A DNA stretch of 64,000 nt, taken from the NCBI RefSeq assembly GCF_001677475.2, contig NZ_CP015229.1; one strand, 5' to 3'. The DNA is from Escherichia coli. Lineage in GTDB: Bacteria; Pseudomonadota; Gammaproteobacteria; Enterobacterales; Enterobacteriaceae. Each line of letters opens with the position of its first letter. Position 1 is the first letter of the stretch. Below are positions 49,920-63,422 of the stretch, in pieces. The notes under the pieces were generated by a model. That model saw nothing but the letters and a program-made list of their open reading frames with translations, had not been told where the DNA came from and made no database searches. Made by a program: the position numbers and the translations under genes.

Positions 49920-51038
49920 TCAAATAACCAACTTAACCCATTCCTGACCTCGAGTATCGTTATAGCGATCGGTGGTTGCCTGGACTTTATGTCCTAGTAA
50001 TGTTTTTGTATCGATACCCTGTGCACGGTACAGCCGTTCTGATAGAGAGCGTTGTTCATGAAATGTTGGCGGAGTTTTTCCTGCTGGTGGAATTATCCCA
50101 GCCAGATCCCGTGCTTTGGCAAAGTAGTCGCTCAGGTTGTCTTTACTCATCGACTTCGGTTGTTTCTGGTGCCGACTATGGATTAGATATGGACTTAATA
50201 TTCTGTCTCGGCACCCATCAATAACTTCTTTTAACGTTATCCCAATGGCATCACAGCGTAGTGTAAGCGGTAACGCCAGACGCATTCCGGTTTTTCCTTG
50301 GGTGATATGCAAGTGTTCGTTCCACACATCTGAAAAACGCATGTGGCAAATGTCATCACGGCGCTGACCAGTAACAATCGCAAGAAGCATTGCGTTACGG
50401 ATAAAGTGTTTTTCAGGCGTTGCGTTGTAAATTTTTTGCCAGTCTTCCAGGGTGAGTCTGGCTCTGGTTACTTTAGGGATTGGTTTACGGGTAGCCTCCG
50501 GAGGATTCCATCCAGGAGGAACTTCCCCTGCATGCTGTGCTTCTTTATAAATATCAAGCCATAATCCGCGATTTACTCTCGCTGTGCTGACCATGTCTTT
50601 ATCCAGCCACTCATCCAGTATTAATGCAAAGTCTCTTACTTCCAGTTCTTTCAATGGGTGGTTTCCCAGACGGGAAACCAGGAATGCAGCCATTCGCGCT
50701 TTTTCTTTGTGGGTTGTAGCTGCAATATCTCCATTTTTCAGGCGCGCGTCCTGTATTTTCAGATATCGATCAACCCATGCCTTTAATCTGATACCCCGAC
50801 GTTTTGTTGCTGATGGACTTTCATCAATTTTGCGCATGAAATATTCAGCTTCTGCTGCAGCTATTCGCTGATTGGCTGTGGAAGCGATTTTTTCTGCCTT
50901 ACCTTTGTCTGTTCCGAGTCCGTGAAATTTTCCAGTCACAGGATTTTTATACTGGTAGTAAACTCTGCCAGTTCTGCGATCAAACTTTTCGTAAAGACCG
51001 GCTACGTCAGTGCTGTTTTTTCGTGGCCTCGGTGACAT
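49920..51038 (-). CDS. int: lambda-family tyrosine integrase
   Basis: 372 aa; C-terminal catalytic region HEQRSLSERLY…LLGHKVQATTDRYNDTRGQEW resembling lambda Int. Confidence 0.93.
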   Translation of the reverse strand: MSPRPRKNSTDVAGLYEKFDRRTGRVYYQYKNPVTGKFHGLGTDKGKAEKIASTANQRIAAAEAEYFMRKIDESPSATKRRGIRLKAWVDRYLKIQDARLKNGDIAATTHKEKARMAAFLVSRLGNHPLKELEVRDFALILDEWLDKDMVSTARVNRGLWLDIYKEAQHAGEVPPGWNPPEATRKPIPKVTRARLTLEDWQKIYNATPEKHFIRNAMLLAIVTGQRRDDICHMRFSDVWNEHLHITQGKTGMRLALPLTLRCDAIGITLKEVIDGCRDRILSPYLIHSRHQKQPKSMSKDNLSDYFAKARDLAGIIPPAGKTPPTFHEQRSLSERLYRAQGIDTKTLLGHKVQATTDRYNDTRGQEWVKLVI

Positions 51039-51285
51039 GAGTTAAAATCTCCTTCAGTGCATCATCATCGCCAGTATGAATTTCCGGCGCAATTCCCGTT
51101 TCACCAGGCCCAACAAATACTGCTCGGCGATCTATCAGCCAACGCCCACGAATTTTTTGTGGTCTTGGAACGATGTATCCTAGTTTTCCGTATTTCACCA
51201 GGGTAGTGTTTGTTATTGGGAGACTGAACCGTTTTGGTTTCCACTCGTCGAGCGTTATCAGGTACTGTTCGCTCATGGCTATCAC
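51007..51285 (-). CDS. xis: excisionase (Xis-like)
   Basis: Small basic ORF overlapping int start; LITLDEW…VFVGP pattern resembling lambda Xis; start may be at MSEQYL (51276). Confidence 0.7.
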   Translation of the reverse strand: MIAMSEQYLITLDEWKPKRFSLPITNTTLVKYGKLGYIVPRPQKIRGRWLIDRRAVFVGPGETGIAPEIHTGDDDALKEILTHVTEATKKQH

Positions 51286-51337: not shown

Positions 51338-53809
51338 TTAAAAATCAGCCTGATTCGGGATCAGTTTTTGCCAGATAGCTGAAACGTATTTTGCCTGGTG
51401 ACGAGCGTCATCAAGTGCATTATGGCGCTCACCTTCGAATGGGATAGCAGTTCTGGCATCGAAGTCTATGGTTTTCCCCAGCTCAACGATTGTGCGTACA
51501 TCGCGATCGTTGTAGTAACGCCACGGGCAGGGGATCCCCTGCCGTTCGTATGAACGGCGCAAAATCGTGTTGTCGAAGTTGGCTCCATTTCCCCAGACCT
51601 GAACAAAAAACTCACCGGAGTTTTCGGCGATAAATTCCCGCAATTGCAGTAGTGCATCATCTAACGGGATTTCATCGGTCATAATGGCAGACTGCGCTTC
51701 ACGTGATTGCTTCAGCCACCATTTAATGACGTCACGATCAATGACTCCGCCAGCAGTATCCAGATCGATGGTCTTGCTAAATTCCGGTCCCATATCACCG
51801 GTTTGCGGATCGAAAAATATTGCACCTATTGAGATAATCGGGGCATCAGGATTTTTTCCCATGGTTTCAAGGTCGATCATCAGATGAATCCCCGCTCTGC
51901 TGGTGGATGTGAGATTATGATGACTGTTCATCTTAATTAAGGGATCTGTCGCCTCGCCAGTTTTATTATCGCTGGCGTGATGCTGATTGCCGCCAGGGTT
52001 CTCCTTGTGTGGATGTTCAGCGCCTTCCATTTCCTCCGGATCATTTTCCTGAACTTCAGGCTGATTCTCTTCATCGAATATTTCCTGGTATGTTGCGTCA
52101 CCCATCACCGCGCCACAATCAGGGCAGTTGCCGCCACCGCTCTGACCGCAGGCTGTGCAGACTTTTTCCGGTTCCTGTTGCGCTACTGGCTCAGGTTGTT
52201 TCGTTTCTGGCTCGTTTTGTTGCGTATTTGGGCTGTTTTGTTCCGCTTTCTGGTCGTTCTGTTCCGTTTCTTGCTGGTTCTGGTTCACAGAATCGCGGGT
52301 TTCAATCCCCTTCACCCATTTCGGATCATTCGGATCGCTAATCCCTGCAACAAATTCACCACGTGATACTGCAAGCAGTTCATCGGCGTCATGCTGGCTG
52401 ATATTGGCTGCCTGCATAATTTTGTTTACTTCGTCAGCGGTAACTTTTACCGGCCCTGGTTGTGCGGTCGTGTCAGATGCACCAGTATTTTGTTGTGAAC
52501 CTGAGTATGTACCGTTTTTGCGGGCGAAATATTCTTCTTTCGTGATTTCAGTAGCCCCGGCAGCCAGTGCCTTATCCAGACCAGAAAGTTTGTTTGCGCG
52601 ACCGTATTTTTCGCCATCCTTGTCGGTGAAGAGGAAGTAGAATGGCCCCTCACGCTCTACAGATGGTTCGACTTCCACTTTGCATTCGGTTTTTTCGTTG
52701 TCCGGAATTGCCGTTTCCACTGCATCAGTTTCTGGTACTGGCGACGAGAGAGTATCAGTTGCGCTCTGATTTCTTCCTTCATCTTCAAACACGCCCTTTG
52801 TAGTCAGGTATTCAGTAATGTATTTGTTCAGTGCCACAGGGTCTTTGTGAATGTCGATCGGACGTTCACGAACAAGGCCAAAAATAGTCTGGCGGTCGTA
52901 GCGAAGGGCATCAGGCTGTTTGCGCATTGATGCCGAGATACGCTTCCAGTCTTCGCGGTCGTTGTCGATAACTTCATTTTTTGCCCAGCGATGGATGCTG
53001 CCATCAATGTTTCCGACATCCACATCACCAGGCCAGAGAGCGTAGGCCAGTTCGTCATCCAGTGTTTTCCATGTCTGCTTGTATTCGCGATGAGTGGCAG
53101 CAATGACCGGGCTGATTTTTCCTGTTGAATTTTCAGTGTGCTGTTGATTGGCTCTGGCGCGGGCGAGATCAACAACAGACGTGTATTTTCCGGTTTCCTT
53201 GCGTTCACCTTCGCGACGTTTTTTCCAGATGCGCATCTCTGCCTGAATTTCGGGCCATTTGGCACCAGGCTTACATTTATGCTTAACCCACCCGATGGCA
53301 TGCAGCTTAAGCTCCGGATACATGGCGTTAACTTCTGGCATTTTCATCAACGCTTCAACGATATGTCCGTCGAATGTTGCCATGTCTTCCTGCAACAATT
53401 CCTGCGCGCTAATCACCATATCAACGGTGATGTTTTCACATGTACCGAACTTAACCAGGACCGCGTTCTGTACTTCAAGGGACAGCTTGTCAAAATTGAC
53501 GTTAATAGGATCGGATTCTGGTTCGACCGGAATAAAGGAAGCGGATTCCTCATCCCAGCGGTTTTCCTGCATATATTCGGTATCCCAGGAGTCGATAGCA
53601 GGGCGGGGCATGCCGGGTTTATCTTCGCAGACAAGAAATTTATAAGCGCAGTCCTGAGCAGCAGGATATTGCTCCAGGAATTGCCAGGTAAATTTGGCAC
53701 GGGCGCGGCGTTCATCACCGGCTTCAATGGCAGTGGCTACAGCAACTGCGCCCTCTTCTTTTATTGCCTGTTCGTCCGGAATGGCGGCGCAAATAAAGAC
53801 TTTACTCAT
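51338..53809 (-). CDS. large phage protein with C-terminal DEDDh 3'-5' exonuclease domain (often annotated exonuclease VIII-like)
   Basis: 823 aa; C-terminal IHLMIDLETMG…GNGANFDNTIL…HNALDDARH (DnaQ-like Exo I/II/III motifs); central CTACGQSGGGNCPDCG zinc ribbon; Q/E-rich linker. Confidence 0.8.
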   Translation of the reverse strand: MSKVFICAAIPDEQAIKEEGAVAVATAIEAGDERRARAKFTWQFLEQYPAAQDCAYKFLVCEDKPGMPRPAIDSWDTEYMQENRWDEESASFIPVEPESDPINVNFDKLSLEVQNAVLVKFGTCENITVDMVISAQELLQEDMATFDGHIVEALMKMPEVNAMYPELKLHAIGWVKHKCKPGAKWPEIQAEMRIWKKRREGERKETGKYTSVVDLARARANQQHTENSTGKISPVIAATHREYKQTWKTLDDELAYALWPGDVDVGNIDGSIHRWAKNEVIDNDREDWKRISASMRKQPDALRYDRQTIFGLVRERPIDIHKDPVALNKYITEYLTTKGVFEDEGRNQSATDTLSSPVPETDAVETAIPDNEKTECKVEVEPSVEREGPFYFLFTDKDGEKYGRANKLSGLDKALAAGATEITKEEYFARKNGTYSGSQQNTGASDTTAQPGPVKVTADEVNKIMQAANISQHDADELLAVSRGEFVAGISDPNDPKWVKGIETRDSVNQNQQETEQNDQKAEQNSPNTQQNEPETKQPEPVAQQEPEKVCTACGQSGGGNCPDCGAVMGDATYQEIFDEENQPEVQENDPEEMEGAEHPHKENPGGNQHHASDNKTGEATDPLIKMNSHHNLTSTSRAGIHLMIDLETMGKNPDAPIISIGAIFFDPQTGDMGPEFSKTIDLDTAGGVIDRDVIKWWLKQSREAQSAIMTDEIPLDDALLQLREFIAENSGEFFVQVWGNGANFDNTILRRSYERQGIPCPWRYYNDRDVRTIVELGKTIDFDARTAIPFEGERHNALDDARHQAKYVSAIWQKLIPNQADF

Positions 53810-54444: not shown

Positions 54445-54856
54445 CTTTTAAAAAAGGGCGGCAGAGCAGTCACGGAGTAAAACTGATACCGCCAAATGTC
54501 ACCAGAATATTGATAACAGAGGGCGTTGTAGCGGGGTTGTCACTTAAGCGTATGGTCAACCTGACAACCCGGTGTCCTCAACGGGGAAAGGCGTCCCTCC
54601 CACCCCCGCCATACTTACCGCCGCGCCATTTCGCGGGTCGCCACAACCGGAAGCGCACGGTCGAATTAAATTTAACGACACCGTGCAGTGAGACGAACTT
54701 CGCCGTGCGCTTTCGTGTTGTGTGCCTGCTTTTAACCACGTCAGGCGAGGTGGTTTCCGTCATTCCCCAACGACAGGAAATCTGTATAATCTGGGTATCC
54801 CCAACGATCCAAGGAAATCATATGACAGAGCAAAGAGCACAAGCAGGTGATGGTGT

Positions 54857-56241: not shown

Positions 56242-56718
56242 TTAAGTTCCTGTCTTGGTGATGTTCTGGCTTTTCCGTTTTGATTCTTGATTTTTCAGAT
56301 AGTTAGCTACCTTCATTTCCATTGCGGCAATGTAGGCGCGAACGTCATGATCAACCCAACTAGGCTCCGTAGCATTTCCAGATAAGAGGAAAGCCACAAT
56401 TGCTCTTTTTTCATCAGAGGCGGCTTGATAAAGGCTGTTTATGTCTAAAAGTTCACTTTTTGTATCTGAAGTGGATGGGGTTGGTATGGGGTATTCGTTA
56501 AGCCCCCAATGCTCTGGACCAACCACATCAGAAAAGAAACGCCATAGTTCTGGAAGTTTGTCTTTACTTATCGAACCTTTCTTAATCCAGTCATGGATTG
56601 ATGGTGGTTGGACTTTGAAATGACGTGCGATTTCCGCCTTTGATTTGACGGCTCCTGATGCAATTTTTTTGTTAATGGCCTGCTCTATCGCTCGGCCTAA
56701 GTCTTTACCACTAAGCAT
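56242..56718 (-). CDS. prophage repressor, RacR-like (HTH, no S24 peptidase domain)
   Basis: 158 aa with N-terminal HTH (KAEIARHFKVQPPSIHDWIKKG); divergent from Cro-like gene; same length and position as Rac RacR. Confidence 0.75.
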   Translation of the reverse strand: MLSGKDLGRAIEQAINKKIASGAVKSKAEIARHFKVQPPSIHDWIKKGSISKDKLPELWRFFSDVVGPEHWGLNEYPIPTPSTSDTKSELLDINSLYQAASDEKRAIVAFLLSGNATEPSWVDHDVRAYIAAMEMKVANYLKNQESKRKSQNITKTGT

Positions 56719-56771: not shown

Positions 56772-56792
56772 TTAGGCATAGCCTATTGACAA
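56772..56792. promoter_or_regulatory. operator-like site in divergent repressor/cro promoter region
   Basis: ttaggcatagcctattgacaa plus neighbouring ttaggca and attaggctaagcctaat near-palindromes between repressor and cro-like genes. Confidence 0.6.
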
Positions 56793-56842
56793 TCACATTA
56801 GGCTAAGCCTAATATTATTGTGTGTTTTTTGGAGTTCATTCG

Positions 56843-57166
56843 ATGAAAAAAGATAACTATTCATTCAAACGAGCTTGTGCTGTTGTCGGTGGGCAATCAG
56901 CAATGGCTAGGCTTTTAGGTGTATCTCCTCCAAGCGTAAATCAATGGATCAAAGGTGTACGTCAGTTGCCTGCTGAGAGATGTCCTGCGATTGAACGAGC
57001 AACAAAAGGTGGTGTCCTGTGTGAAGAACTTCGTCCTGATGTTGATTGGACATACTTACGACGCTCGTCATGTTATTCGCAGAATATGTCGATGAAGCAA
57101 CCAAATGACGAAAACGATCATACCCGAAGCATCAAGAGGCAAATGATTCATGAAAATCAAACATGA
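56843..57166 (+). CDS. Cro-like HTH regulator (YdaS family)
   Basis: 107 aa from ATG with GGAG SD; HTH ARLLGVSPPSVNQWIKGVRQLP; divergent from repressor. Confidence 0.75.
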   Translation: MKKDNYSFKRACAVVGGQSAMARLLGVSPPSVNQWIKGVRQLPAERCPAIERATKGGVLCEELRPDVDWTYLRRSSCYSQNMSMKQPNDENDHTRSIKRQMIHENQT

Positions 57167-57575
57167 GCATATCCGCATGGCGATGAATGCCTGGGCATAC
57201 CCTGATGGTGAGAAAGTTCCTGCAGCTGAAATAGCCCGGACTTATTTCGAACTGGGAATGACGTTCCCGGAACTGTACGACGACAGCCATCCGGAAGCCC
57301 TGGCCCGTAATACCCAGAAAATTTTCCGTTGGCTGGATAAAGACACCCCTGATGCTGTTGAAAAAATGCAGGCTCTGTTACCGGCGATCGAAAAGGCGAT
57401 GCCGCCTTTGCTGGTGGCCCGTATGCGCAGCCACAGTTCTGAGTATTACCGTGAGATTGTCGAACGGAGGGATCGGTTGGTGAAAGATGTCGACGATTTT
57501 GTTGCGTCAGCGGTTGTTTTGTATGACCAGATGAATCGCGGCGGCCCGGCAGGAAATGCCGTGGTGATGCACTAA
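57150..57575 (+). CDS. YdaT-like (CII-like) regulatory protein
   Basis: 141-aa ORF immediately after the Cro-like gene with overlapping start, as ydaS-ydaT in Rac. Confidence 0.65.
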   Translation: MKIKHEHIRMAMNAWAYPDGEKVPAAEIARTYFELGMTFPELYDDSHPEALARNTQKIFRWLDKDTPDAVEKMQALLPAIEKAMPPLLVARMRSHSSEYYREIVERRDRLVKDVDDFVASAVVLYDQMNRGGPAGNAVVMH

Positions 57576-57582
57576 CAGCACG

Positions 57583-58566
57583 GTGTTCGGGGGTTTTATG
57601 AGCAGCAAGCTTCATGGTCTTGTCTGGGAAGGATGCGCCTTCACCGGCATGATCTTATCCCGGGTGGCAGTGATGGCCCGTCTTGCAGACTACAGCAATG
57701 ACGAGGGCGTGTCATGGCCTGCTATTGAAACTATCCGGCGTCAGATCGGTGCAAGAAGTGAATCCACAGTGAAATCGGCTATTGCAGAACTGGCGAAAGA
57801 GGGCTGGCTGACGAAGGAAGAGCGTAAGGTCGGTGGGCGTAATGTAAGCAATATCTATCGGCTTAATGTGGAAAAACTCGAAGCAGCAGCTGCGGCGGCG
57901 CGTGAGTCATATAAACCGAAAAGAAAAATTAGCCCGGCAAAAAATGACCCGTTAACAGTTGACCCGTCAAATATTGACCCCTCAACGGTTGACCCGTCAA
58001 ATTTTGATGGATCAACTGTTGATAAAAAACTGCCGATTAGGGGGACGATGATTGACCCCGATCAGTCAGTATTAAAACCTGATCCGTCAGATGAAAGATC
58101 TTCTTGTCCTGACGTTTCACTGCCGGACAAAAAACAATCATCACCAGTTGAGCGATTTCTGGAGAAACACCCGGATGCGCATACCTGGAATGTGCAGAAG
58201 CGACAGTGGGGTACCCGTGAGGATGTCGCCTGTGCGCAGTGGATTTGGGGACGGGTTGTTGCGTTGTATGAACAGGCCGCCAGTGATGATGGTGAGGTAT
58301 CACGCCCCAGAGAACCTAACTGGACGACCTGGGCGAATGATGTGCGCATGATGCGTATGCTGGATGGACGTAGTCACCGGCAGATTTGTGAAATGTTTGG
58401 GCGTGTCCAGCGGGATTCGTTCTGGGTAAAAAACATCATGAGTCCGGCAAAACTCCGGGAAAAATGGGATGAGCTGGTTATTCGTCTGGGGCGTTCGCCT
58501 GTACAGCGTTGCGTGAATCACATTTCTGAACCGGATACCGAAATTCCGCCGGGGTTCAGGGGGTAA
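57583..58566 (+). CDS. phage replication initiation protein (O-like, winged-HTH N-terminus)
   Basis: About 322-327 aa (ATG at 57598 has GGGGG SD); N-terminal HTH region; internal iteron array encoding repetitive linker PLTVDPSNIDPSTVDPSNFDGSTVD. Confidence 0.75.
   Translation: MFGGFMSSKLHGLVWEGCAFTGMILSRVAVMARLADYSNDEGVSWPAIETIRRQIGARSESTVKSAIAELAKEGWLTKEERKVGGRNVSNIYRLNVEKLEAAAAAARESYKPKRKISPAKNDPLTVDPSNIDPSTVDPSNFDGSTVDKKLPIRGTMIDPDQSVLKPDPSDERSSCPDVSLPDKKQSSPVERFLEKHPDAHTWNVQKRQWGTREDVACAQWIWGRVVALYEQAASDDGEVSRPREPNWTTWANDVRMMRMLDGRSHRQICEMFGRVQRDSFWVKNIMSPAKLREKWDELVIRLGRSPVQRCVNHISEPDTEIPPGFRG
57945..58090. repeat. iteron array (putative prophage origin of replication) inside replication gene
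   Basis: Direct repeats tgacccgttaac, ttgacccgtcaa (x2), ttgacccctcaa, ttgaccccgatc, tgatccgtcaga at 14-16 bp spacing. Confidence 0.7.
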
Positions 58567-58608: not shown

Positions 58609-59010
58609 ATGGGGGCTATTTATACCGAAGAACAGCGGGAAAGGTTACAGCGTCACATCGTTGACCTTGTACGTAAAAACGGGCGTATGACAATGCCACA
58701 ACTGGCATCGGCAACATATGCTTCACATGATTCCATTCGCCGGTACCTGAAGATGCTGGTGAGCCAGGGCGAAGTGTATGTTGTCAGCGGAAAAGGGGTA
58801 TTCCTTTCAGAGAGAGTTTACCGTGAATGGCTGGCAAGTTCGGCAAAAAAATCAAGGGTTATCCGCAAACCAGCACAAAAACAGGGTAAGGCCGGAGTAC
58901 AACCCTACGACCGGCACCAGAACGTAATTTGCCGGGAATGTCGTAACAGCGAATCAATGCAGCGGGTACTGGCTTTTTACAGGGGTGGATTTCAGGAGCT
59001 CGTATCGTGA
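58609..59010 (+). CDS. hypothetical DNA-binding protein (winged-helix-like N-terminus)
   Basis: 133-aa ORF, translationally coupled to next ORF. Confidence 0.5.
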   Translation: MGAIYTEEQRERLQRHIVDLVRKNGRMTMPQLASATYASHDSIRRYLKMLVSQGEVYVVSGKGVFLSERVYREWLASSAKKSRVIRKPAQKQGKAGVQPYDRHQNVICRECRNSESMQRVLAFYRGGFQELVS

Positions 59011-59315
59011 AAAAGTGGGTGCGTGCCGAGATACTGATTCTACGGCAGTGTGCGGGAACAATGACGGTGGAATGCATCGGGATGCTTATTGGTCGTAGTG
59101 AGGCTGCGGTCAGAACGAAAGCGCGGGAACTGGGTATTAGTATGATGTTACGGGGTGATTATCACCAGTCAGCAAAATATCCGCAGAGTGATATTGAGCT
59201 GGCGCGACAGCTGCATCAACGTGGCGTGTCCAGGAGAGAAATCGCCAGAAAATTTGGAATGCCGCTGCGCACAGTGAATAACTACGTTTATTTCGACAGG
59301 AGGGTGTCTGCGTGA
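59007..59315 (+). CDS. hypothetical protein with two HTH-like segments
   Basis: 102 aa; RSEAAVRTKARELGIS and VSRREIARKFGMPLRTV helix-turn-helix-like motifs. Confidence 0.5.
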   Translation: MKKWVRAEILILRQCAGTMTVECIGMLIGRSEAAVRTKARELGISMMLRGDYHQSAKYPQSDIELARQLHQRGVSRREIARKFGMPLRTVNNYVYFDRRVSA

Positions 59316-59557
59316 AAATCCTGTATCAGGATTACGGCCCGGTGGGACAGGTGGTTATCAGCAGTACTGTAATGGAGTTCCGGAAGCATAACCGTGTGGT
59401 GGATGCAGTGCTGTTAGCCTGTCCGGGGATATCGGCGAGCCGTGCAGGTGTGTTTTTTATGAAGACGAAGTTATATGGCAGTACAGCGTGGATAAAGAAG
59501 GCGTACCGGGTAGCGTTGCAGGAGGTAAACAGTGAGCGAATCGGCAACCATTCTTGA
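59312..59557 (+). CDS. hypothetical protein
   Basis: 81-aa ORF overlapping neighbours at both ends. Confidence 0.4.
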   Translation: MKILYQDYGPVGQVVISSTVMEFRKHNRVVDAVLLACPGISASRAGVFFMKTKLYGSTAWIKKAYRVALQEVNSERIGNHS

Positions 59558-60020
59558 TATGTCCTGTGGCAGTCGTATGTTCTGGTTCGATAAGAATGAC
59601 GACCGGGCGATATTTAGCGATATCAGAAAAGAAGAGCACACATTATGTGATGGACGACGCCTGATAATTAGCCCTGACCTGATAGCAGATTTTCGTGCAT
59701 TACCATTTGCAGACGCATCGTTTCCGGTTGTTGTATTCGACCCTCCGCATCTTGAGCGTGTTGGTGATAACGCCTGGATGGGAAAGAAATATGGACGGCT
59801 GAATAAAGATACCTGGCGTGATGATTTGCGGCAGGGATTTAAAGAAGCCTTTCGTGTGTTGTGGCCACACGGTGTTCTGATTTTTAAATGGAATGAAACG
59901 CAAATACCTGTCCGCCAGATATTGGCACTAACCGACGCGAAACCAATCATCAGCCAGCGCACCGGTAAGAACGATAAAACACATTGGATTATTTTTGTGA
60001 AGGAAGCGACCAGTGGGTAA
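59532..60020 (+). CDS. orphan DNA methyltransferase (amino-MTase, DPPH motif)
   Basis: 162 aa from GTG with GGAGG SD; motif I-like DMSCGSRMFW and motif IV VVVFDPPH; no adjacent restriction endonuclease gene. Confidence 0.7.
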   Translation: MSESATILDMSCGSRMFWFDKNDDRAIFSDIRKEEHTLCDGRRLIISPDLIADFRALPFADASFPVVVFDPPHLERVGDNAWMGKKYGRLNKDTWRDDLRQGFKEAFRVLWPHGVLIFKWNETQIPVRQILALTDAKPIISQRTGKNDKTHWIIFVKEATSG

Positions 60021-60267
60021 ATCAAAATGCCAGGTTTATGGCAACAAGATAGAACCGTGTACGGCACTGGCAAACTCCCTTGAGCATGATGCTGAATACA
60101 CGACGCGAAAAGGTCTGCTGATATACGAAATCTGGAATGAGAGTTTAACTCGCGGCCCTGATTTGGTGATGTTGCGATCCGGTGAATTTTCTAAATCACC
60201 AGTTCGGGTTTCATTTTTCCCGTTCTGCGGTGAAAGTCTGAAAACGTGGGAGAACAGAAATGAATGA
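60013..60267 (+). CDS. hypothetical small Cys-containing protein
   Basis: 84-aa ORF from GTG, overlapping MTase stop. Confidence 0.45.
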   Translation: MGKSKCQVYGNKIEPCTALANSLEHDAEYTTRKGLLIYEIWNESLTRGPDLVMLRSGEFSKSPVRVSFFPFCGESLKTWENRNE

Positions 60268-60571
60268 AATTAGAGAAATACCAGTAGAACGTGATGAATA
60301 TGGCTGCTGGACACATCCAGAATATGAAAAATTCTGTGACGGTCGGGAATATATTTCAACGGAAGAGTTTAACGCCTGGATGAAGGAAAATAATCTTCAG
60401 TGGACTATTTGCAGCATGGATGAAGATTATTTAAATCCGGTTGCAGATGACCCCGATATTTCCGCCTGGGAACCGGAACGACCAGAGGGCGAAGGCTGGT
60501 TTATTAGCTCCATTCATGATACTGAAGATGGTCCGGTTTGTGTCTGGTTGCGAAACAAGGTGATGGCATAG
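60260..60571 (+). CDS. hypothetical protein
   Basis: 103-aa acidic ORF, overlapping starts/stops in array. Confidence 0.5.
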   Translation: MNEIREIPVERDEYGCWTHPEYEKFCDGREYISTEEFNAWMKENNLQWTICSMDEDYLNPVADDPDISAWEPERPEGEGWFISSIHDTEDGPVCVWLRNKVMA

Positions 60572-60874
60572 ATGAGAATAGAAAAAGCGAAAGCACAGCT
60601 CAGGATAATGCTTGCTGGTCCGGCTGCGAGTTATATGACACATTCACCAGCCATAAAGAAGGTTCTTGATGAACTGGAAGCCAAAGACAAGCGCATTGCA
60701 GAACTGGAGGCGAGGGAAATCCAGTTACCTGCTGGCTTCGACCTTCGATATGGACACCCGATAAATGCTGATGAGCGACATGTGATGATACCTAAAGAAA
60801 ATGGCAACTGGATTTATCGGACTGACTTAGAGCACGTACTACGTGTTGCAGGGATTCGAATTAAAGGAGACTAA
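60572..60874 (+). CDS. hypothetical protein
   Basis: 100-aa ORF starting at stop of previous gene. Confidence 0.5.
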   Translation: MRIEKAKAQLRIMLAGPAASYMTHSPAIKKVLDELEAKDKRIAELEAREIQLPAGFDLRYGHPINADERHVMIPKENGNWIYRTDLEHVLRVAGIRIKGD

Positions 60875-60875
60875 C

Positions 60876-61232
60876 GTGGAAATAAAACCAGAAGATGAGT
60901 TAAGTAATATTGTTTTATTTCCGGTAAAAGAGGATGACCCACGTAATCAGGTTAATTTTCTTTATGAGCCATCGGAAAGACCATATTGTCATCACGCCTC
61001 TGTCCGGGTTGACGAAAAAGAGCGTCAGGTCCGCTGTAAAATCTGCGGTGCAGTTGTGGAGCTATTTGACTGGATGCTCTCTGTGGCGAAAAGAGAAACC
61101 AGACTGGCAGATGATGTAAGGATCTTGCGCCAGGAGGAACGGGAAAGGCGGAGAAATATAGAAAAGCTAATTCAGATTGAGCGTAACGTGAAAGCGCGGA
61201 TACGCAGGGTGACAAAATCCAGAACTGAATAA
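60876..61232 (+). CDS. hypothetical zinc-ribbon protein
   Basis: 118 aa from GTG with AAGGAG SD; CHH…CKICG motif; basic C-terminus. Confidence 0.5.
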   Translation: MEIKPEDELSNIVLFPVKEDDPRNQVNFLYEPSERPYCHHASVRVDEKERQVRCKICGAVVELFDWMLSVAKRETRLADDVRILRQEERERRRNIEKLIQIERNVKARIRRVTKSRTE

Positions 61233-61280
61233 TTAAATTTAGCTCTGTTAAAAATTTAATCCTTAACCGGAGGTATATCA

Positions 61281-61493
61281 ATGTCAAACGCACAGAAAGT
61301 TATTAACGCTGAAAAATATAACGAGTGGGTGAAAAAGTTCTCAGAGCAGATTTTTAAAATTACTGGCGACGAGAATGCGGCAAAAAATGAATTAGAGCCG
61401 TGGACACCTGAAGGTGTCGACCCAAATTATTGCTGGTGGGATGTTGATCCAGTTGATGCTGCAAATGAAGCTATGAGTTATCACAACGATTAA
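61281..61493 (+). CDS. hypothetical protein
   Basis: 70-aa ORF with GGAGG SD. Confidence 0.5.
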   Translation: MSNAQKVINAEKYNEWVKKFSEQIFKITGDENAAKNELEPWTPEGVDPNYCWWDVDPVDAANEAMSYHND

Positions 61494-61528
61494 TGTCAGG
61501 AGGCCGCCCGAAAGGGCGGTAATGAAAA

Positions 61529-62362
61529 GTGACTGAATTAACCAAAGAGCAATTAATCGAAGAAGCCAAATTAAAAATAGCGATTGCGAAATGCTACCCC
61601 AGTTCAGGGATGGCACGGGTAGAGGGCGAGTTATTCAAAATTGCACTGGCATCGCTGGAAGCAGAACCAATAGGTGCTTTCCACATTGTAGAACAGCAAG
61701 TTGACGGAACAAGTTACTATATCAAGGATGGGGAATGGCCTATTGATACTGGGATTATTGAAGTCTACGCCGCCTCACCGATGACGGTAGTGCTGAACGA
61801 TGTATCTGGACCTCTTGCTCTTGCTTACAAAGAGCTTACACCTGCGATTATGCGCAACCATATCGCTGTATTCGAACGATACGGAATAACCCCAAACGAT
61901 AGCATTACTACAATTCATGCGCTTCGAATTGCGCTGGATGGCATAGAGCGGAGCGACGCCATGCTTCATGGACGTCAGCCATGCCATCAAATTACCGCCT
62001 CAATGGCAAAAGCTATTGCGCTTAAACTTGGTGCCGAACTGAATAACGAAGAAGCAGAGATTTTCGCGGATGGGTATAACACCGCCATGCTTCATGCCGA
62101 AAACTTTCGGGAAAATAAGAATTCGTCAACCAATAATTTTCGGATAACCTCGGAAACGTCAACCAACTCTCCGGCAATCCCTGATGAGGTGTTGTCCGCA
62201 ATCCTGAAGGTCGCCAGGCTTCGTGCAGATTTCGATGCTTCTGAAGGTGACAGGCGAGGTATCGGTGGTTGTCTGGATGAGGCCGAGCAAGAACTTATCG
62301 TTACCATTAACAAATACGCCAGTCAGATCGCAGTAGAAGCGATACAGGGGGCGCACCAATGA
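61529..62362 (+). CDS. hypothetical phage protein (277 aa), function unknown
   Basis: Largest ORF of nin-like array, GTG start after hairpin ggccgcccgaaagggcgg; no recognisable catalytic motif. Confidence 0.6.
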   Translation: MTELTKEQLIEEAKLKIAIAKCYPSSGMARVEGELFKIALASLEAEPIGAFHIVEQQVDGTSYYIKDGEWPIDTGIIEVYAASPMTVVLNDVSGPLALAYKELTPAIMRNHIAVFERYGITPNDSITTIHALRIALDGIERSDAMLHGRQPCHQITASMAKAIALKLGAELNNEEAEIFADGYNTAMLHAENFRENKNSSTNNFRITSETSTNSPAIPDEVLSAILKVARLRADFDASEGDRRGIGGCLDEAEQELIVTINKYASQIAVEAIQGAHQ

Positions 62363-62471: not shown

Positions 62472-62576
62472 ATGTCGGATGATATTTCACTGGTAATGGA
62501 AGGCGCTCTGGCTGTTATTGCTGTTGTGGGTGTTTACTGCCTGGTTGTGTTTTTGATGGATCGCCTGGGGAACTGA
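62472..62576 (+). CDS. 34-aa single-TM hydrophobic peptide
   Basis: MSDDISLVMEGALAVIAVVGVYCLVVFLMDRLGN with strong SD AGGGAGGG 3-4 nt upstream; not in track (<60 aa). Confidence 0.5.
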   Translation: MSDDISLVMEGALAVIAVVGVYCLVVFLMDRLGN

Positions 62577-62820
62577 ATTCATTCCGTATGGGAATTCCCA
62601 TATCGGGCAAAAACGGTTTGCTGTAAAGCGAGAGTTAAGTAGAATTGCTGCGGGTGCTTGAGGCTATCTGCCTCGGGCATGCCGCCGTAAGGCAGACAGA
62701 GAAAAGCCCCAGTTAACATTACGCGTCCTGCAAGACGCTTAACATTAATCTGAGGCCATATCTATGACTTGCACACGTAGGTTAGCCTCTTACGTGCCGA
62801 AAGGCAAGGAGAAGCAGGCT

Positions 62821-62976
62821 ATGAAGCAGCAAAAGGCGATGTTAATCGCCCTGATCGTCATCTGTTTAACCGTTATAGTGACGGCACTGGTAACGAGGAA
62901 AGACCTCTGCGAGGTACGAATCCGAACCGGCCAGACGGAGGTCGCTGTCTTCACAGCTTACGAACCTGAGGAGTAA
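62821..62976 (+). CDS. hok: Hok/Gef-family type I toxin (HokD/RelF-like)
   Basis: 51 aa MKQQKAMLIALIVICLTVIVTALVTRKDLCEVRIRTGQTEVAVFTAYEPEE; AAGGAG SD; in-frame upstream ATG at 62764 gives a 70-aa mok-like extension. Confidence 0.85.
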   Translation: MKQQKAMLIALIVICLTVIVTALVTRKDLCEVRIRTGQTEVAVFTAYEPEE

Positions 62977-63014: not shown

Positions 63015-63422
63015 GTGTCAGGCTTCCTCAACGCACCCGCACTTAACCCGCTTCGGCGGGTTTTGTTTTTTCTGTGCATTCTGGTTTACAATTCGCACGC
63101 CAGCCTGAACAACTGGCACCTGCTGCGCCAGCAGAGACAACCGATGGCGCACGATACCAAATTACACAATTCTGATGATTCTGCCGTTTTTGCCAGCAGG
63201 CACGGGCTGCGTTCTCACGCATTCAAATATGACTGGTATCAGCACGATCCCTGCACTGAAGAACAGGCCGAATGGCTGATTCATAACTACCGCAGACGTG
63301 GGTATGAGTTTAAGAAAGCCCTCAGTCTCGATTATCGTCACTGGATAATCTACGTCAGACTCCCTTATTCCGAACGCCCGCCGCGTCCATCCCGCACATT
63401 CCAGCAACGGATCTGGAGGTAA
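63015..63422 (+). CDS. hypothetical protein (Rem-position), start uncertain
   Basis: ORF after hok; likely start at ATG 63144 (92 aa). Confidence 0.45.
   Translation: MSGFLNAPALNPLRRVLFFLCILVYNSHASLNNWHLLRQQRQPMAHDTKLHNSDDSAVFASRHGLRSHAFKYDWYQHDPCTEEQAEWLIHNYRRRGYEFKKALSLDYRHWIIYVRLPYSERPPRPSRTFQQRIWR

Follow-up and report, generated by a model that had tools for sequence, protein, structure and literature searches.

The ten plus-strand ORFs (O1 to O10) at positions 58609–62362 of the window, i.e., the 64,000-nucleotide stretch of the Escherichia coli contig NZ_CP015229.1 that was analysed, are best explained, with a probability of roughly 80%, as the variable accessory part of an early-right operon that belongs to a Rac-type lambdoid prophage. 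By its position, this segment corresponds to the ren-nin region of phage lambda; it would be composed of independently mobile cassettes rather than of the parts of one machine.

All ten ORFs are present, and their union covers 3671 of the 3754 nt (≈ 98% coding density). Every one has a match among the phage protein families of PHROG (E values from 3e-19 to 3.6e-86), and therefore these ORFs are genes rather than chance frames. Of the nine junctions, seven are an overlap, an abutment or a 1-nt gap: the reading frames overlap by 4 nt at O1/O2 (the alternative O2 start of the NCBI PGAP annotation, 59034, would leave a 23-nt gap) and at O2/O3, by 26 nt at O3/O4, and by 8 nt at O4/O5 and again at O5/O6; O6 abuts O7 (TAG ATG), and 1 nt separates O7 from O8. 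Gaps of 48 and 35 nt are located at O8/O9 and O9/O10, respectively. The O7/O8 distance follows from the revised O8 start, GTG at 60876, because this codon has AAAGGAG 6 nt upstream and agrees with annotated homologues of 118 aa. The mechanically assigned GTG at 60843, which resulted in a 32-nt O7/O8 overlap, was rejected, as it has no Shine-Dalgarno (SD) sequence; apart from that start, every gene has its own SD of good quality, and all ten reading frames are intact. So, coordinates, PHROG matches and junctions agree with the original prediction of a tightly packed plus-strand set, and the early operons of phages are typically packed in this way, which is nothing unusual per se.

The array sits within a Rac-type lambdoid prophage, with racR/ydaS/ydaT and the replication-initiator gene directly before it and hok/sok after it. 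The upstream part of the prophage carries int, xis, a recE-like exonuclease gene, DicF, racR, ydaS, ydaT and the replication gene, and in a 99%-identical relative the RusA and DUF968 genes are located downstream, only after hok. A predicted pR-like sigma-70 promoter facing the array (56786–56815, plus strand; TTGACA-18-TAATAT, 10 of 12 matches in a consensus scan) lies between the racR-like repressor gene (56242–56718, minus strand) and the ydaS-like gene. The right boundary is formed by a plus-strand sok/hok type I toxin-antitoxin locus (62652–62976; Rfam sok, 110.6 bits), with hokD annotated in relatives, and the first strong intrinsic terminator past the array is predicted at 63045–63062 (plus strand; stem AACCCGC-TTCG-GCGGGTT, then a T run). 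The terminator scan revealed no convincing plus-strand terminator between this promoter and this terminator, which is consistent with one transcript; the pR-like promoter is likely to be the start of a transcript reading through the ten genes. The array is thus a co-oriented, probably co-transcribed block of early genes, in agreement with the original prediction.

The first gene, O1 (58609–59010; 133 aa, basic), encodes a Ren-like/DUF977 winged-HTH protein. It matches Pfam DUF977 over its full length (4.2e-24), HTH_24 (1e-4), and phrog_142, "Ren-like exclusion protein" (1.1e-31), to which lambda Ren also belongs (1.6e-41); the C-termini of O1 and lambda Ren are 55% identical, and O1 is positioned directly after the replication-initiator gene, like ren in lambda. 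O2 (59007–59315; 102 aa, basic) is an HTH DNA-binding protein according to phrog_323 (1.1e-27), phrog_3855 ("HTH DNA binding protein"), Pfam HTH_23 (0.006) and the annotation of its relatives as "DNA-binding protein". Its GTG start at 59007 is supported, because the phrog_323 alignment begins at residue 2. O3 (59312–59557; 81 aa, basic) belongs to phrog_1001 (2.1e-37), with no match in Pfam, NCBIfam or PADLOC and 2 cluster representatives among the best 150 matches in a search of a 1.84-billion-protein library. O2 and O3 were always found together in the related loci examined.

The product of O4 (59532–60020; 162 aa) is an orphan SAM-dependent amino-methyltransferase core; its motif I spans residues 8–18, and DPPH is at 70–73. 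It matches phrog_954 (3.6e-86) and, nearly over its full length, the PADLOC models MTase_II (8.9e-71) and oMTase (1.2e-46). Relatives occur in 254 phage records; those from Listeria, Lactobacillus, Streptococcus, Vibrio and Porphyromonas phages are ≈ 50% identical to O4 and one from a haloarchaeal virus 34%, and DPPH, KYG, FKWN and THW are invariant. Cytosine methylation by the homologue from Listeria phage A118 is an annotation note only. No nuclease partner is adjacent to O4 here or in the relatives inspected across phyla, whose neighbours differ. In these respects (model match, SAM motif, DPPH and no neighbouring nuclease) O4 resembles the phage orphan DNA methyltransferases of REBASE and PADLOC, but sequence analysis recognised no target-recognition domain in its 162 aa.

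The next genes encode small proteins. O5 (60013–60267; 84 aa) has no family match beyond phrog_4030 (2e-35) and 6 representatives among the best 150 matches in the same library. O6 (60260–60571; 103 aa, acidic) is a member of a widespread portable phage domain catalogued in PHROG, which is fused to many unrelated modules; it has a confidently predicted fold, no Pfam family, no solved structural relative in the fold search, and no enzyme-like relatives. O7 (60572–60874; 100 aa) is a short Ea22-like protein, with a coiled coil and an Ea22-type C-terminus. It matches phrog_250 over residues 32–100 (3e-19; lambda Ea22, 3.9e-63), and BLASTP with lambda Ea22 gave two short colinear matches, among them AGIRIKG(D/E), found at the C-terminus of each protein; O7 lacks the N-terminal segment that is usual in Ea22, Pfam Ead_Ea22 stays below significance (i-E 0.66), and a 93%-identical relative is annotated "ead/Ea22-like". 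O8 (60876–61232; 118 aa) is a zinc ribbon followed by one long helix: it belongs to phrog_1621 (3.2e-52), has invariant C38, H40, C54 and C57 (Cys-His-Cys-Cys; numbered on the 118-aa form) and a conserved basic helix, and weakly resembles the TFIIB zinc ribbon (Pfam 0.012; Foldseek E 0.3). Its AlphaFold2 model (pLDDT 72) has a disordered N-terminus, two beta-hairpins and a helix at 63–117. O9 (61281–61493; 70 aa, acidic, Trp-rich) has no family match besides phrog_4659 (3.7e-50).

The last gene, O10 (61529–62362), encodes an acidic, modular Eaa-type protein of 277 aa (P22 Eaa/"DUF551-containing" family). Many of its 6693 homologues are named Eaa or DUF551 domain-containing, and most carry PF04448, which is missing from O10's own 98%-identical cluster; O10 itself has no Pfam match, DUF551 being undetectable. 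Its PHROG matches are mosaic (6847 and 660 at the N-terminus, 14306 at the C-terminus). The genes named in the original prediction can be recognised: its methyltransferase, the sole catalytic motif in the array, is O4, its HTH proteins are O1 and O2, its zinc-ribbon protein is O8 and its 277-aa protein is O10. That most products have no known function also holds, O3, O5, O6 and O9 being members of catalogued PHROG families only. Its counter-case, in which all the ORFs would fall into well-characterised Nin/Ead-type families, holds only by half: O1, O7 and O10 belong to the Ren, Ea22 and Eaa families, respectively, and none of the ten is a Nin protein. The biochemistry of the Ren, Ea22 and Eaa families is itself poorly known.

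Between O9 and O10 is an intercistronic element (61498–61521, plus strand) in which the SD (AGGAG) abuts a 7-pair hairpin with a GAAA tetraloop (−18.7 kcal/mol, z −3.84), and the O10 start codon is located 9 nt past the stem. The exact 24-mer is found in at least 120 viral contig stretches; in all 119 analysed occurrences it is flanked by ORFs of one and the same strand, which make up 40 different upstream/downstream pairs, and in the oriented loci it is always on the transcribed strand. Rare variants keep the pairing, and no Rfam family corresponds to the element. Similarity to three related loci (L001, L007 and L089) picks up again exactly at 61496, next to it; the element is a portable junction element and a recurrent mosaic breakpoint. 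Hairpin-bridged ("split") SD sites have been described, e.g., for phage T4 gene 38. Here too a stable hairpin directly follows the SD, and the start codon lies 6–9 nt 3′ of that hairpin, so that folding would put the SD at a normal distance from the start; in contrast to the T4 type, the element is near-invariant and is reused before many unrelated genes at mosaic breakpoints.

The array itself is mosaic. At least 80% of the region is held by one of 5,426 complete E. coli genomes, and pieces of it occur in 3,170. The full array never recurs among 160 related IMG/VR viral loci, these being the closest relatives anchored on O8 or O4, in which co-occurrence of the other eight genes is sampled indirectly. 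In 45 of 57 loci O4 is unaccompanied by the rest of the array, and O8 is alone in 18 of 48. The O7-O8-O9 block is duplicated in related loci, and its internal order flips (O8-O9 in 7 loci, O9-O8 in 4). Sub-cassettes recur in other orders, in other phages, within the Stx-phage exo-xis region and on a plasmid of 100 kb; the O7–O9 DNA shares ≈ 90% identity with the exo-xis DNA of Stx2a phages. Breakpoints recur at 59516–59520, 60706, 60848 and 61496. Often linked are O2-O3, O4-O5-O6 and O7-O8, and O10 co-travels with hok and a small membrane ORF between them (62472–62576).

According to the proposed scheme, loss of the RacR-type repressor would start a transcript at the pR-like promoter through ydaS/ydaT, the replication initiator and O1 to O10, up to the post-hok terminator, and ribosomes could pass from gene to gene owing to the short overlaps and the SD of each gene. 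The mobile cassettes would be O1; O2-O3; O4; O5-O6; O7-O8; O9; and O10 with the small membrane ORF and hok. Recombination presumably joined them where genes meet and also at conserved short linkers, among them the SD-hairpin that precedes O10, the stretch of Ea22-type genes that codes for the coiled coil, and the sequence immediately ahead of the O4 start. Each product most likely acts singly. O1 may be linked to the replication module and O2 would bind DNA. O4 would modify nucleic acid, most likely phage and host DNA with a blunting of restriction, or possibly RNA. O7 and O10 may be oligomeric adaptors biasing the lysis-lysogeny decision via host partners, O8 a coiled-coil dimer, and O3, O5, O6 and O9 small binders.

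It is possible, though less likely than not, that the array stacks up factors for counter-defence or host modulation that each consist of a single gene. One or more of the small products would then directly inhibit an immune or housekeeping protein of the host, and O4, an orphan methyltransferase, would guard DNA against restriction. Variable blocks like this one have been termed "accessory regions", in which counter-defence genes tend to be located (Silas et al. 2023, preprint, bioRxiv 10.1101/2023.04.06.535777), and the setting is of the kind anticipated in the original prediction. The array shares with such regions its variable small early genes, located between a conserved replication module on the left and hok on the right, and the horizontal exchange of single genes; it differs from them in that no product resembles a known anti-defence protein in Pfam, PHROG annotation, PDB sequence or fold searches, and PADLOC defence models match nothing but O4. 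Candidates would be O6 and O9, small and strongly acidic (pI 4.1 and 4.4) like many protein inhibitors, O8, O7 and O10; O6 is additionally a highly conserved portable domain. However, acidity and size predict weakly, and the only relatives that have been studied, Ea22 and Ren, are connected with the control of lysogeny and with escape from Rex rather than with classical defence systems.

The linked sub-blocks could possibly be functional units of two or three genes. Obligate modules, in which O5 and/or O6 would serve O4 as its subunit for specificity or targeting and O2-O3 would be a regulator-effector pair, are nevertheless unlikely. Overlapping frames within the recurring blocks and the missing target-recognition domain of O4 favour them, as does the two-subunit methyltransferase of Stx phage PA8, which was annotated as a DNA enzyme but methylated 16S rRNA and depended on a neighbouring winged-HTH protein (PMC10810198). 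At the same time, the PA8 enzyme is from another family (MT-A70, DPPW), O4 lacks O5 and O6 in most loci and has different neighbours across phyla, O6 occurs without O5 and without O4 (loci L040 and L078), and the O2-O3 linkage may only mirror recent common descent, the copies being 99% identical. Decay of a cryptic prophage, leaving truncated genes with no current function, is less probable still. Frameshifted or partial pseudogenes are annotated among the relatives of several cassettes, and O10 and O7 lack the segments noted above, but the frames and SDs are intact, the 277-aa O10 variant forms its own cluster of 52 member sequences, and the families are 90–99% identical across hundreds of prophages (O6, 36–60% across Proteobacteria), which argues for purifying selection. 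The original idea of one uncharacterised system, when read as a host-takeover or anti-defence machine of ten cooperating products, fits the packed, co-oriented, probably co-translated genes, their mostly obscure products and a phage region of a type enriched in counter-defence genes, but it is highly improbable and largely refuted by the co-occurrence data, since the genes neither travel together nor keep their order, the cassettes recur separately in different operons of other phages, and PADLOC finds the orphan methyltransferase alone.

The accessory segment proposed here occupies the same early-right position as the delayed-early ren-nin region between O/P and Q of lambda, directly after the replication genes, likewise opens with a Ren-family gene, and consists, like it, of small, overlapping, non-essential, mosaic genes. 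In contrast to ren-nin, NinB to NinI are all missing (PHROG, Pfam), and the content is of the ea type, early-left (exo-xis) in lambda, P22 and Stx phages. Ea22 proteins, for which a pro-lysogenic role was reported, are themselves mosaic, in that they have their N-terminal and coiled-coil part in common while their C-terminal domains can be swapped (PMC10834534), and the modular build of the ea-type genes of the array, O7 with its phrog_250 match and C-terminal AGIRIKG and O10 of the Eaa family, fits this scheme; the array copies differ in their location, which is the pR operon on the opposite arm, and in their shortened O7 and DUF551-free O10. The immunity region is homologous to that of K-12 Rac (racR-ydaS-ydaT-ydaU-ydaV-ydaW), with racR 92% and ydaS 84% identical and the YdaT-family gene more distant (31%), and the replication genes of both prophages are followed by a gene of the DUF977 kind or a related one; ydaW of K-12 matches phrog_142 weakly (E 2e-4). 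Whereas K-12 Rac carries ydaU together with a DnaC-like ydaV and is deleted from just behind ydaW onwards, the present prophage has no loader gene and carries a single 327-aa initiator with a lambda-O-like C-terminus, followed by the full accessory array.

The block of ten plus-strand ORFs at 58609-62362 (O1-O10) is best understood, with a probability of about 0.8, as the accessory part of an early-right operon in a Rac-type prophage, made up of independently mobile genes that are co-expressed and each act alone. The array itself, as outlined in the original prediction, was confirmed by the ORF listing and by a PHROG family for each member: O1 (58609-59010, 133 aa), O2 (59007-59315, 102 aa), O3 (59312-59557, 81 aa), O4 (59532-60020, 162 aa), O5 (60013-60267, 84 aa), O6 (60260-60571, 103 aa), O7 (60572-60874, 100 aa), O8 (60843-61232 as mechanically listed, 129 aa), O9 (61281-61493, 70 aa), and O10 (61529-62362, 277 aa). 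Since all ten match phage protein families in PHROGs (E-values from 3e-19 to 3.6e-86), they are genes rather than chance ORFs. The near-universal overlap or abutment of neighbors ascribed to the array holds from O1 through O7, with successive overlaps of 4, 4, 26, 8, and 8 nt from O1 to O6 and a direct abutment (TAG ATG) at the O6/O7 junction, but not for the remaining genes. The mechanical O8 start, GTG 60843, is devoid of a Shine-Dalgarno (SD) sequence; the in-frame GTG 60876 is preceded by AAAGGAG 6 nt upstream, and the homologues are annotated with 118 aa. With the O8 start moved to GTG 60876, the O7/O8 junction becomes a 1-nt gap instead of a 32-nt overlap, and the O8/O9 and O9/O10 pairs are separated by gaps of 48 and 35 nt. 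For O2, the PGAP annotation (NCBI) of relatives uses ATG 59034, but the GTG 59007 start is supported because the longer form aligns to the PHROG from its residue 2 onward. Revised gene starts are one product of the analysis; the boundaries of the cassettes, i.e., of the mobile genes or small gene blocks, are the other.

A pR-like promoter (56786-56815) precedes the array, and the first strong plus-strand terminator, an intrinsic one at 63045-63062, is located behind hok, so transcription of the whole block as a single unit is plausible, and we infer this arrangement. The closest DNA match, E. coli 08-00022 (99.4% identity across 81% of the region), has the block annotated within a Rac-type lambdoid prophage, in the order integrase, excisionase, exonuclease, dicB, racR, ydaS-like HTH, and YdaT-family gene, followed by a 323-aa HTH (replication) protein, the array, hokD, DUF968, RusA, and the lysis genes. 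The gene order in the window is the same: int (49920-51038), xis (51007-51285), the recE-like exonuclease gene (51338-53809), racR (56242-56718), the ydaS-like (56822-57166) and ydaT-like (57150-57575) genes, and the gene of a 327-aa replication initiator (57583-58566) directly before the array. The right border is formed by sok/hok (62652-62976), comprising the sok antisense RNA (Rfam, 110.6 bits) and the hok toxin gene. The prophage also has DicF RNA in its early-left region, on the minus strand at 54456-54507 (Rfam, 77 bits); dicB is annotated in the near-identical relative, and together with DicF it makes up a dicBF module for the inhibition of cell division, here set in a Rac-type immunity background. 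The initiator has HTH_36 and DnaD_N-like matches at its N-terminus, and residues 208-300 align with the C-terminal part of lambda O at 43% identity; the initiator gene is not followed by a helicase-loader gene (P- or DnaC-like), O1 (DUF977) being found in this place. Between O10 and hok, at 62472-62576, there is a 34-aa ORF with a strong SD and a predicted hydrophobic helix (MSDDISLVMEGALAVIAVVGVYCLVVFLMDRLGN), which is annotated as a hypothetical protein in relatives and is constantly linked to O10 and hok.

The only catalytic motif that had been noticed in the array, that of the methyltransferase, was verified: O4 carries DPPH, and PADLOC recognizes nothing else. O4 gave nearly full-length matches to DNA methyltransferase PHROGs and to the PADLOC models of Type II (MTase_II, 8.9e-71) and orphan methyltransferases. 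Its residues 8-18 (LDMSCGSRMFW) correspond to the N-terminal SAM-binding motif I; the catalytic DPPH (residues 70-73) is invariant in the alignment of homologues from E. coli to a haloarchaeal virus, as are the further motifs KYG, FKWN, and THW. With 162 aa, the protein is too short for a target-recognition domain, and no restriction endonuclease lies beside it, the neighboring O3 and O5 having no nuclease family matches in PHROG, NCBIfam, or PADLOC. O4 is therefore a predicted orphan amino-methyltransferase of the N6-adenine/N4-cytosine type. Its relatives occur in 254 phage records, including Listeria A118, Lactobacillus A2, and Streptococcus, Vibrio, and Porphyromonas phages at about 50% identity and the haloarchaeal virus at 34%; they are mostly located near replication genes, and the neighbors differ in six distant phages. 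A minimal DPPH methyltransferase conserved over this range is a lead in its own right. A "DNA methyltransferase" annotation in a prophage can conceal an RNA enzyme, as in Stx phage PA8, whose two-subunit rRNA methyltransferase pairs an MT-A70 protein carrying DPPW with a winged-HTH partner encoded next to it (PMC10810198). This assignment was rejected for O4, which belongs to another family (DPPH, no MT-A70 Pfam match). A PA8-style partner subunit is disfavored, since the downstream O5 and O6 are missing from most O4 loci.

The second protein of particular interest is O6 (60260-60571). A fused O3+O5+O6+O8+O9 query was run against a library of 1.84 billion cluster representatives. Of the 150 best hits, the set inspected, over 100 were O6 relatives with 36-60% identity, either standalone proteins of about 100-115 aa or domains whose N- or C-terminal side is joined to another phage module, among them Eaa-type modules, a DHH phosphoesterase, and a tandem second copy of the O6 domain itself. 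The family is large, strongly conserved across Proteobacteria, and characterized by the motifs PVERDxxGxWxHP and GWFxxSIHDTEDGPVCxWLR; G15, H19, and W80 of O6 are among its invariant residues. The AlphaFold2 model has a pLDDT of 91; there is no Pfam family for this protein and no solved structural relative. The WxPxxPxGxGWF motif prompted consideration of O6 as a divergent DUF551, and this was rejected, as none of 65 members matched any Pfam family. O6 is a well-defined, functionally blank domain, and its family, amounting to hundreds of prophage proteins with neither annotation nor structural relative, is another lead.

These two proteins bear on the best surviving alternative to independent accessory genes as a general description, namely that one cassette or more would each act as a single-gene factor that counters defence or modulates the host, or that O4 would shield DNA from restriction. 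Among the PADLOC-DB 2.0 defence models, O4 alone found matches, and the other ORFs gave only scattered hits with E-values of at least 0.002; we regard this alternative as possible, at somewhat less than even odds.

The distribution of the genes is the evidence that carries the preferred reading of independent cassettes. Some piece of the 4.2-kb region is present in 3,170 of 5,426 complete E. coli genomes, and coverage of at least 80% was reached in a single one, from which O8 and O9 are missing. The ten proteins and flanking markers were also mapped onto related viral-contig loci, 80 anchored on O8 and 80 on O4, and the full ten-gene set was found in none of the 160. Co-occurrence was counted in the loci with at least 3 kb on either side (48 for O8 and 57 for O4), a gene being considered present at ≥ 70% identity. 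O8 was without any of the other nine genes in 18 of 48 loci, and among the same 48 the arrangements O7-O8, O8-O9, and the swapped O9-O8 were seen 12, 7, and 4 times, respectively; O4 was alone in 45 of 57. Moreover, the exo-xis (early-left) region of Stx2 phages carries the same cassettes. Linkage was seen in sub-blocks: O2-O3, O4-O5-O6, O7-O8, O8-O9, and a block in which O10 is accompanied by the small membrane ORF and hok. Such sub-blocks are what small obligate modules (O4 with O5/O6, or O2 with O3, for example) would look like, but the occurrence data disfavor them, and this explanation is quite improbable. Decaying junk is still less probable, given the intact reading frames, the good SD sequences, and the family-wide conservation. 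Finally, a single coherent ten-gene system, the uncharacterised multi-gene system suspected at the outset, is hardly tenable, as the genes neither co-occur nor keep their order in the 160 loci and the 5,426 genomes and PADLOC gives no indication of it. For shuffled independent cassettes, it follows that the genes should be tested singly rather than as parts of a ten-gene system. In terms of the preferred reading, the array genes would be expressed together early after induction, with each product acting alone.

Two further observations concern the range of these cassettes. A 100-kb E. coli plasmid (locus L004, NZ_CP045829.1), possibly a phage-plasmid, carries O4, O8, O9, and O10 cassettes at 2974-5545 with 91-100% protein identity, adjoining 3'-phosphatase and toprim genes, so the accessory gene pool extends beyond integrated lambdoid prophages. 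In two IMG/VR contigs (L011 and L017), the O7-O8-O9 block is tandemly duplicated with diverged copies (80-90% vs 94-100% identity for O8 and O9, and only 37% for the second O7); cassette gain by local duplication or by recurrent insertion at the linker can therefore occur.

Comparison of the window with seven relatives placed shared similarity breakpoints at 59516-59520, shortly 5' of the O4 start, and at 60706, within the part of O7 coding for the coiled coil. Further repeated breakpoints were located at 60848, 61279, 61668, and 61496, the last of which corresponds to the start of a 24-nt element between O9 and O10 (61498-61521, AGGAG-GCCGCCCGAAAGGGCGGT-A). In this element, the SD AGGAG abuts a hairpin of seven pairs with a GAAA loop (arms GCCGCCC and GGGCGGT), the O10 start codon lies 9 nt further on, and the region has a predicted RNA folding energy of -18.7 kcal/mol (z = -3.84). 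The exact 24-mer was found in at least 120 viral-contig stretches. In all of the 119 occurrences listed, it stands between same-strand ORFs, with at least six unrelated gene families on either side and 40 distinct gene pairs; in the oriented loci of the O8- and O4-anchored sets it is always on the transcribed strand, and among the matches listed the start codon is 6-9 nt 3' of the stem. The rare variants preserve pairing (six changes of G.U to A-U, one of C-G to U.G, and one of GAAA to GAGA), which is weak evidence since part of the sample was chosen by exact match. Rfam, searched with gathering as well as permissive cutoffs, has no family for the hairpin. An integron-attC-like interpretation was discarded: the stem has only seven pairs, there is no such integrase, and homologous recombination suffices.

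Judged from its sequence and contexts, the 24-mer appears to be a reusable intercistronic linker. Once folded, the hairpin would leave the SD normally spaced from the start codon that follows, and as conserved DNA the element would be among the short homologies that allow cassettes to be exchanged, used by RecET/Red-type recombinases for swapping accessory genes. Cassette exchange of this kind is documented for lambdoid phages with such recombinases (cf. PMC2327257, PMC3945230), and the prophage itself encodes a recE-like exonuclease. A reusable SD-hairpin junction may help to explain the reassortment of lambdoid accessory regions. Two bolder readings are rather unlikely: that the 24-mer is a dedicated cassette-junction element, which would make it a plug-and-play socket through which enterobacterial lambdoid phages take up accessory genes, and that at least one cassette is an unrecognised inhibitor of host immunity or physiology. 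The top inhibitor candidates are the O6 domain, which is acidic, confidently folded, and widespread in Proteobacteria, and the acidic O9.

As for the other proteins, the 277-aa product, the HTH proteins, and the zinc-ribbon protein announced for the array were recognized as O10, O1 and O2 (the latter by PHROG and Pfam), and O8, respectively. In the 118-aa form of O8, the residues C38, H40, C54, and C57 do not vary among 12 sequences with identity down to 40%, and the basic helix is conserved as well; the AlphaFold2 model (pLDDT 72) consists of a disordered N-terminus, a small zinc ribbon with strands at 43-46 and 51-54, and one 55-residue helix. O8 has a weak match to Pfam Zn_Ribbon_TF (i-E 0.012) and a weak Foldseek match to the TFIIB N-terminal domain (E 0.3, probability 0.93, 27 columns). 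The PHROGs of O3, O5, and O9 are small, and these three proteins gave no further hits and have few diverse relatives. None of O1-O10 has a sequence relative in the PDB (best E 0.12, two concatenated queries covering all ten proteins), and the NCBIfam search gave only sub-threshold HTH and methyltransferase noise. Literature searches under the RefSeq accessions of relatives found nothing, DUF977 turned up in one unrelated paper, and the genes are not mentioned in PMC9836094, which deals with co-transferred lambdoid genes.

Membership of all ORFs in Nin/Ead-type families, the competing case in the original prediction, was borne out in part only, for O7 (Ea22) and O10 (Eaa), with O1 in the Ren family. 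O7 and lambda Ea22 both fall into phrog_250 (3e-19 and 3.9e-63); the match begins at O7 residue 32 and covers only profile positions 172-240, and BLASTP aligned two short colinear segments, one being the C-terminal AGIRIKG. The Ea22 N-terminal segment before the coiled coil has no similarity in O7, and against Pfam Ead_Ea22 (coiled-coil signature IPR025153) O7 remained below threshold (i-E 0.66) and O10 gave no match. O10 is of Eaa type: its 6693 homologues are named "DUF551 domain-containing" or "Eaa", the latter with 45% identity over 98% of the query. DUF551 (PF04448) was absent from O10 in a Pfam search up to E 10 and from the precomputed annotation of its 98%-identical cluster, whereas most homologues carry it. 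This fits the modular organization of Ea22/Eaa proteins, with common N-terminal and coiled-coil parts and exchangeable C-terminal domains (PMC10834534). On the Nin side, none of the ten ORFs matched NinB/Orf, NinC, NinG/Rap, NinH, or NinI in Pfam or PHROG, and tblastn against lambda 27-46 kb returned a sole match, between O1 and Ren.

O1 is a full-length DUF977 protein (Pfam 4.2e-24, residues 5-129) whose N-terminus forms a winged HTH. Like lambda Ren (1.6e-41), it matches phrog_142, "Ren-like exclusion protein" (1.1e-31), and the C-termini of the two are 55% identical. In 44 of 48 O8 loci, an O1-like gene, preceded by a replication gene, lies no more than about 3.5 kb from O8. For every array gene, many sequenced E. 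coli prophages carry copies at 90-99% identity, and PHROGs includes all ten. The O6, O4, and SD-hairpin leads leave the current understanding of lambdoid phage biology unchanged. This type of region, with mosaic ren-nin or ea-type accessory genes of lambdoid phages, has long been known, and only the exact combination is rare. In lambda, ren directly follows P, and in the array O1 directly follows the replication initiator gene, starting 42 nt past its end; with the replication gene on the left and the array next to it, the block holds the ren-nin slot of lambda.
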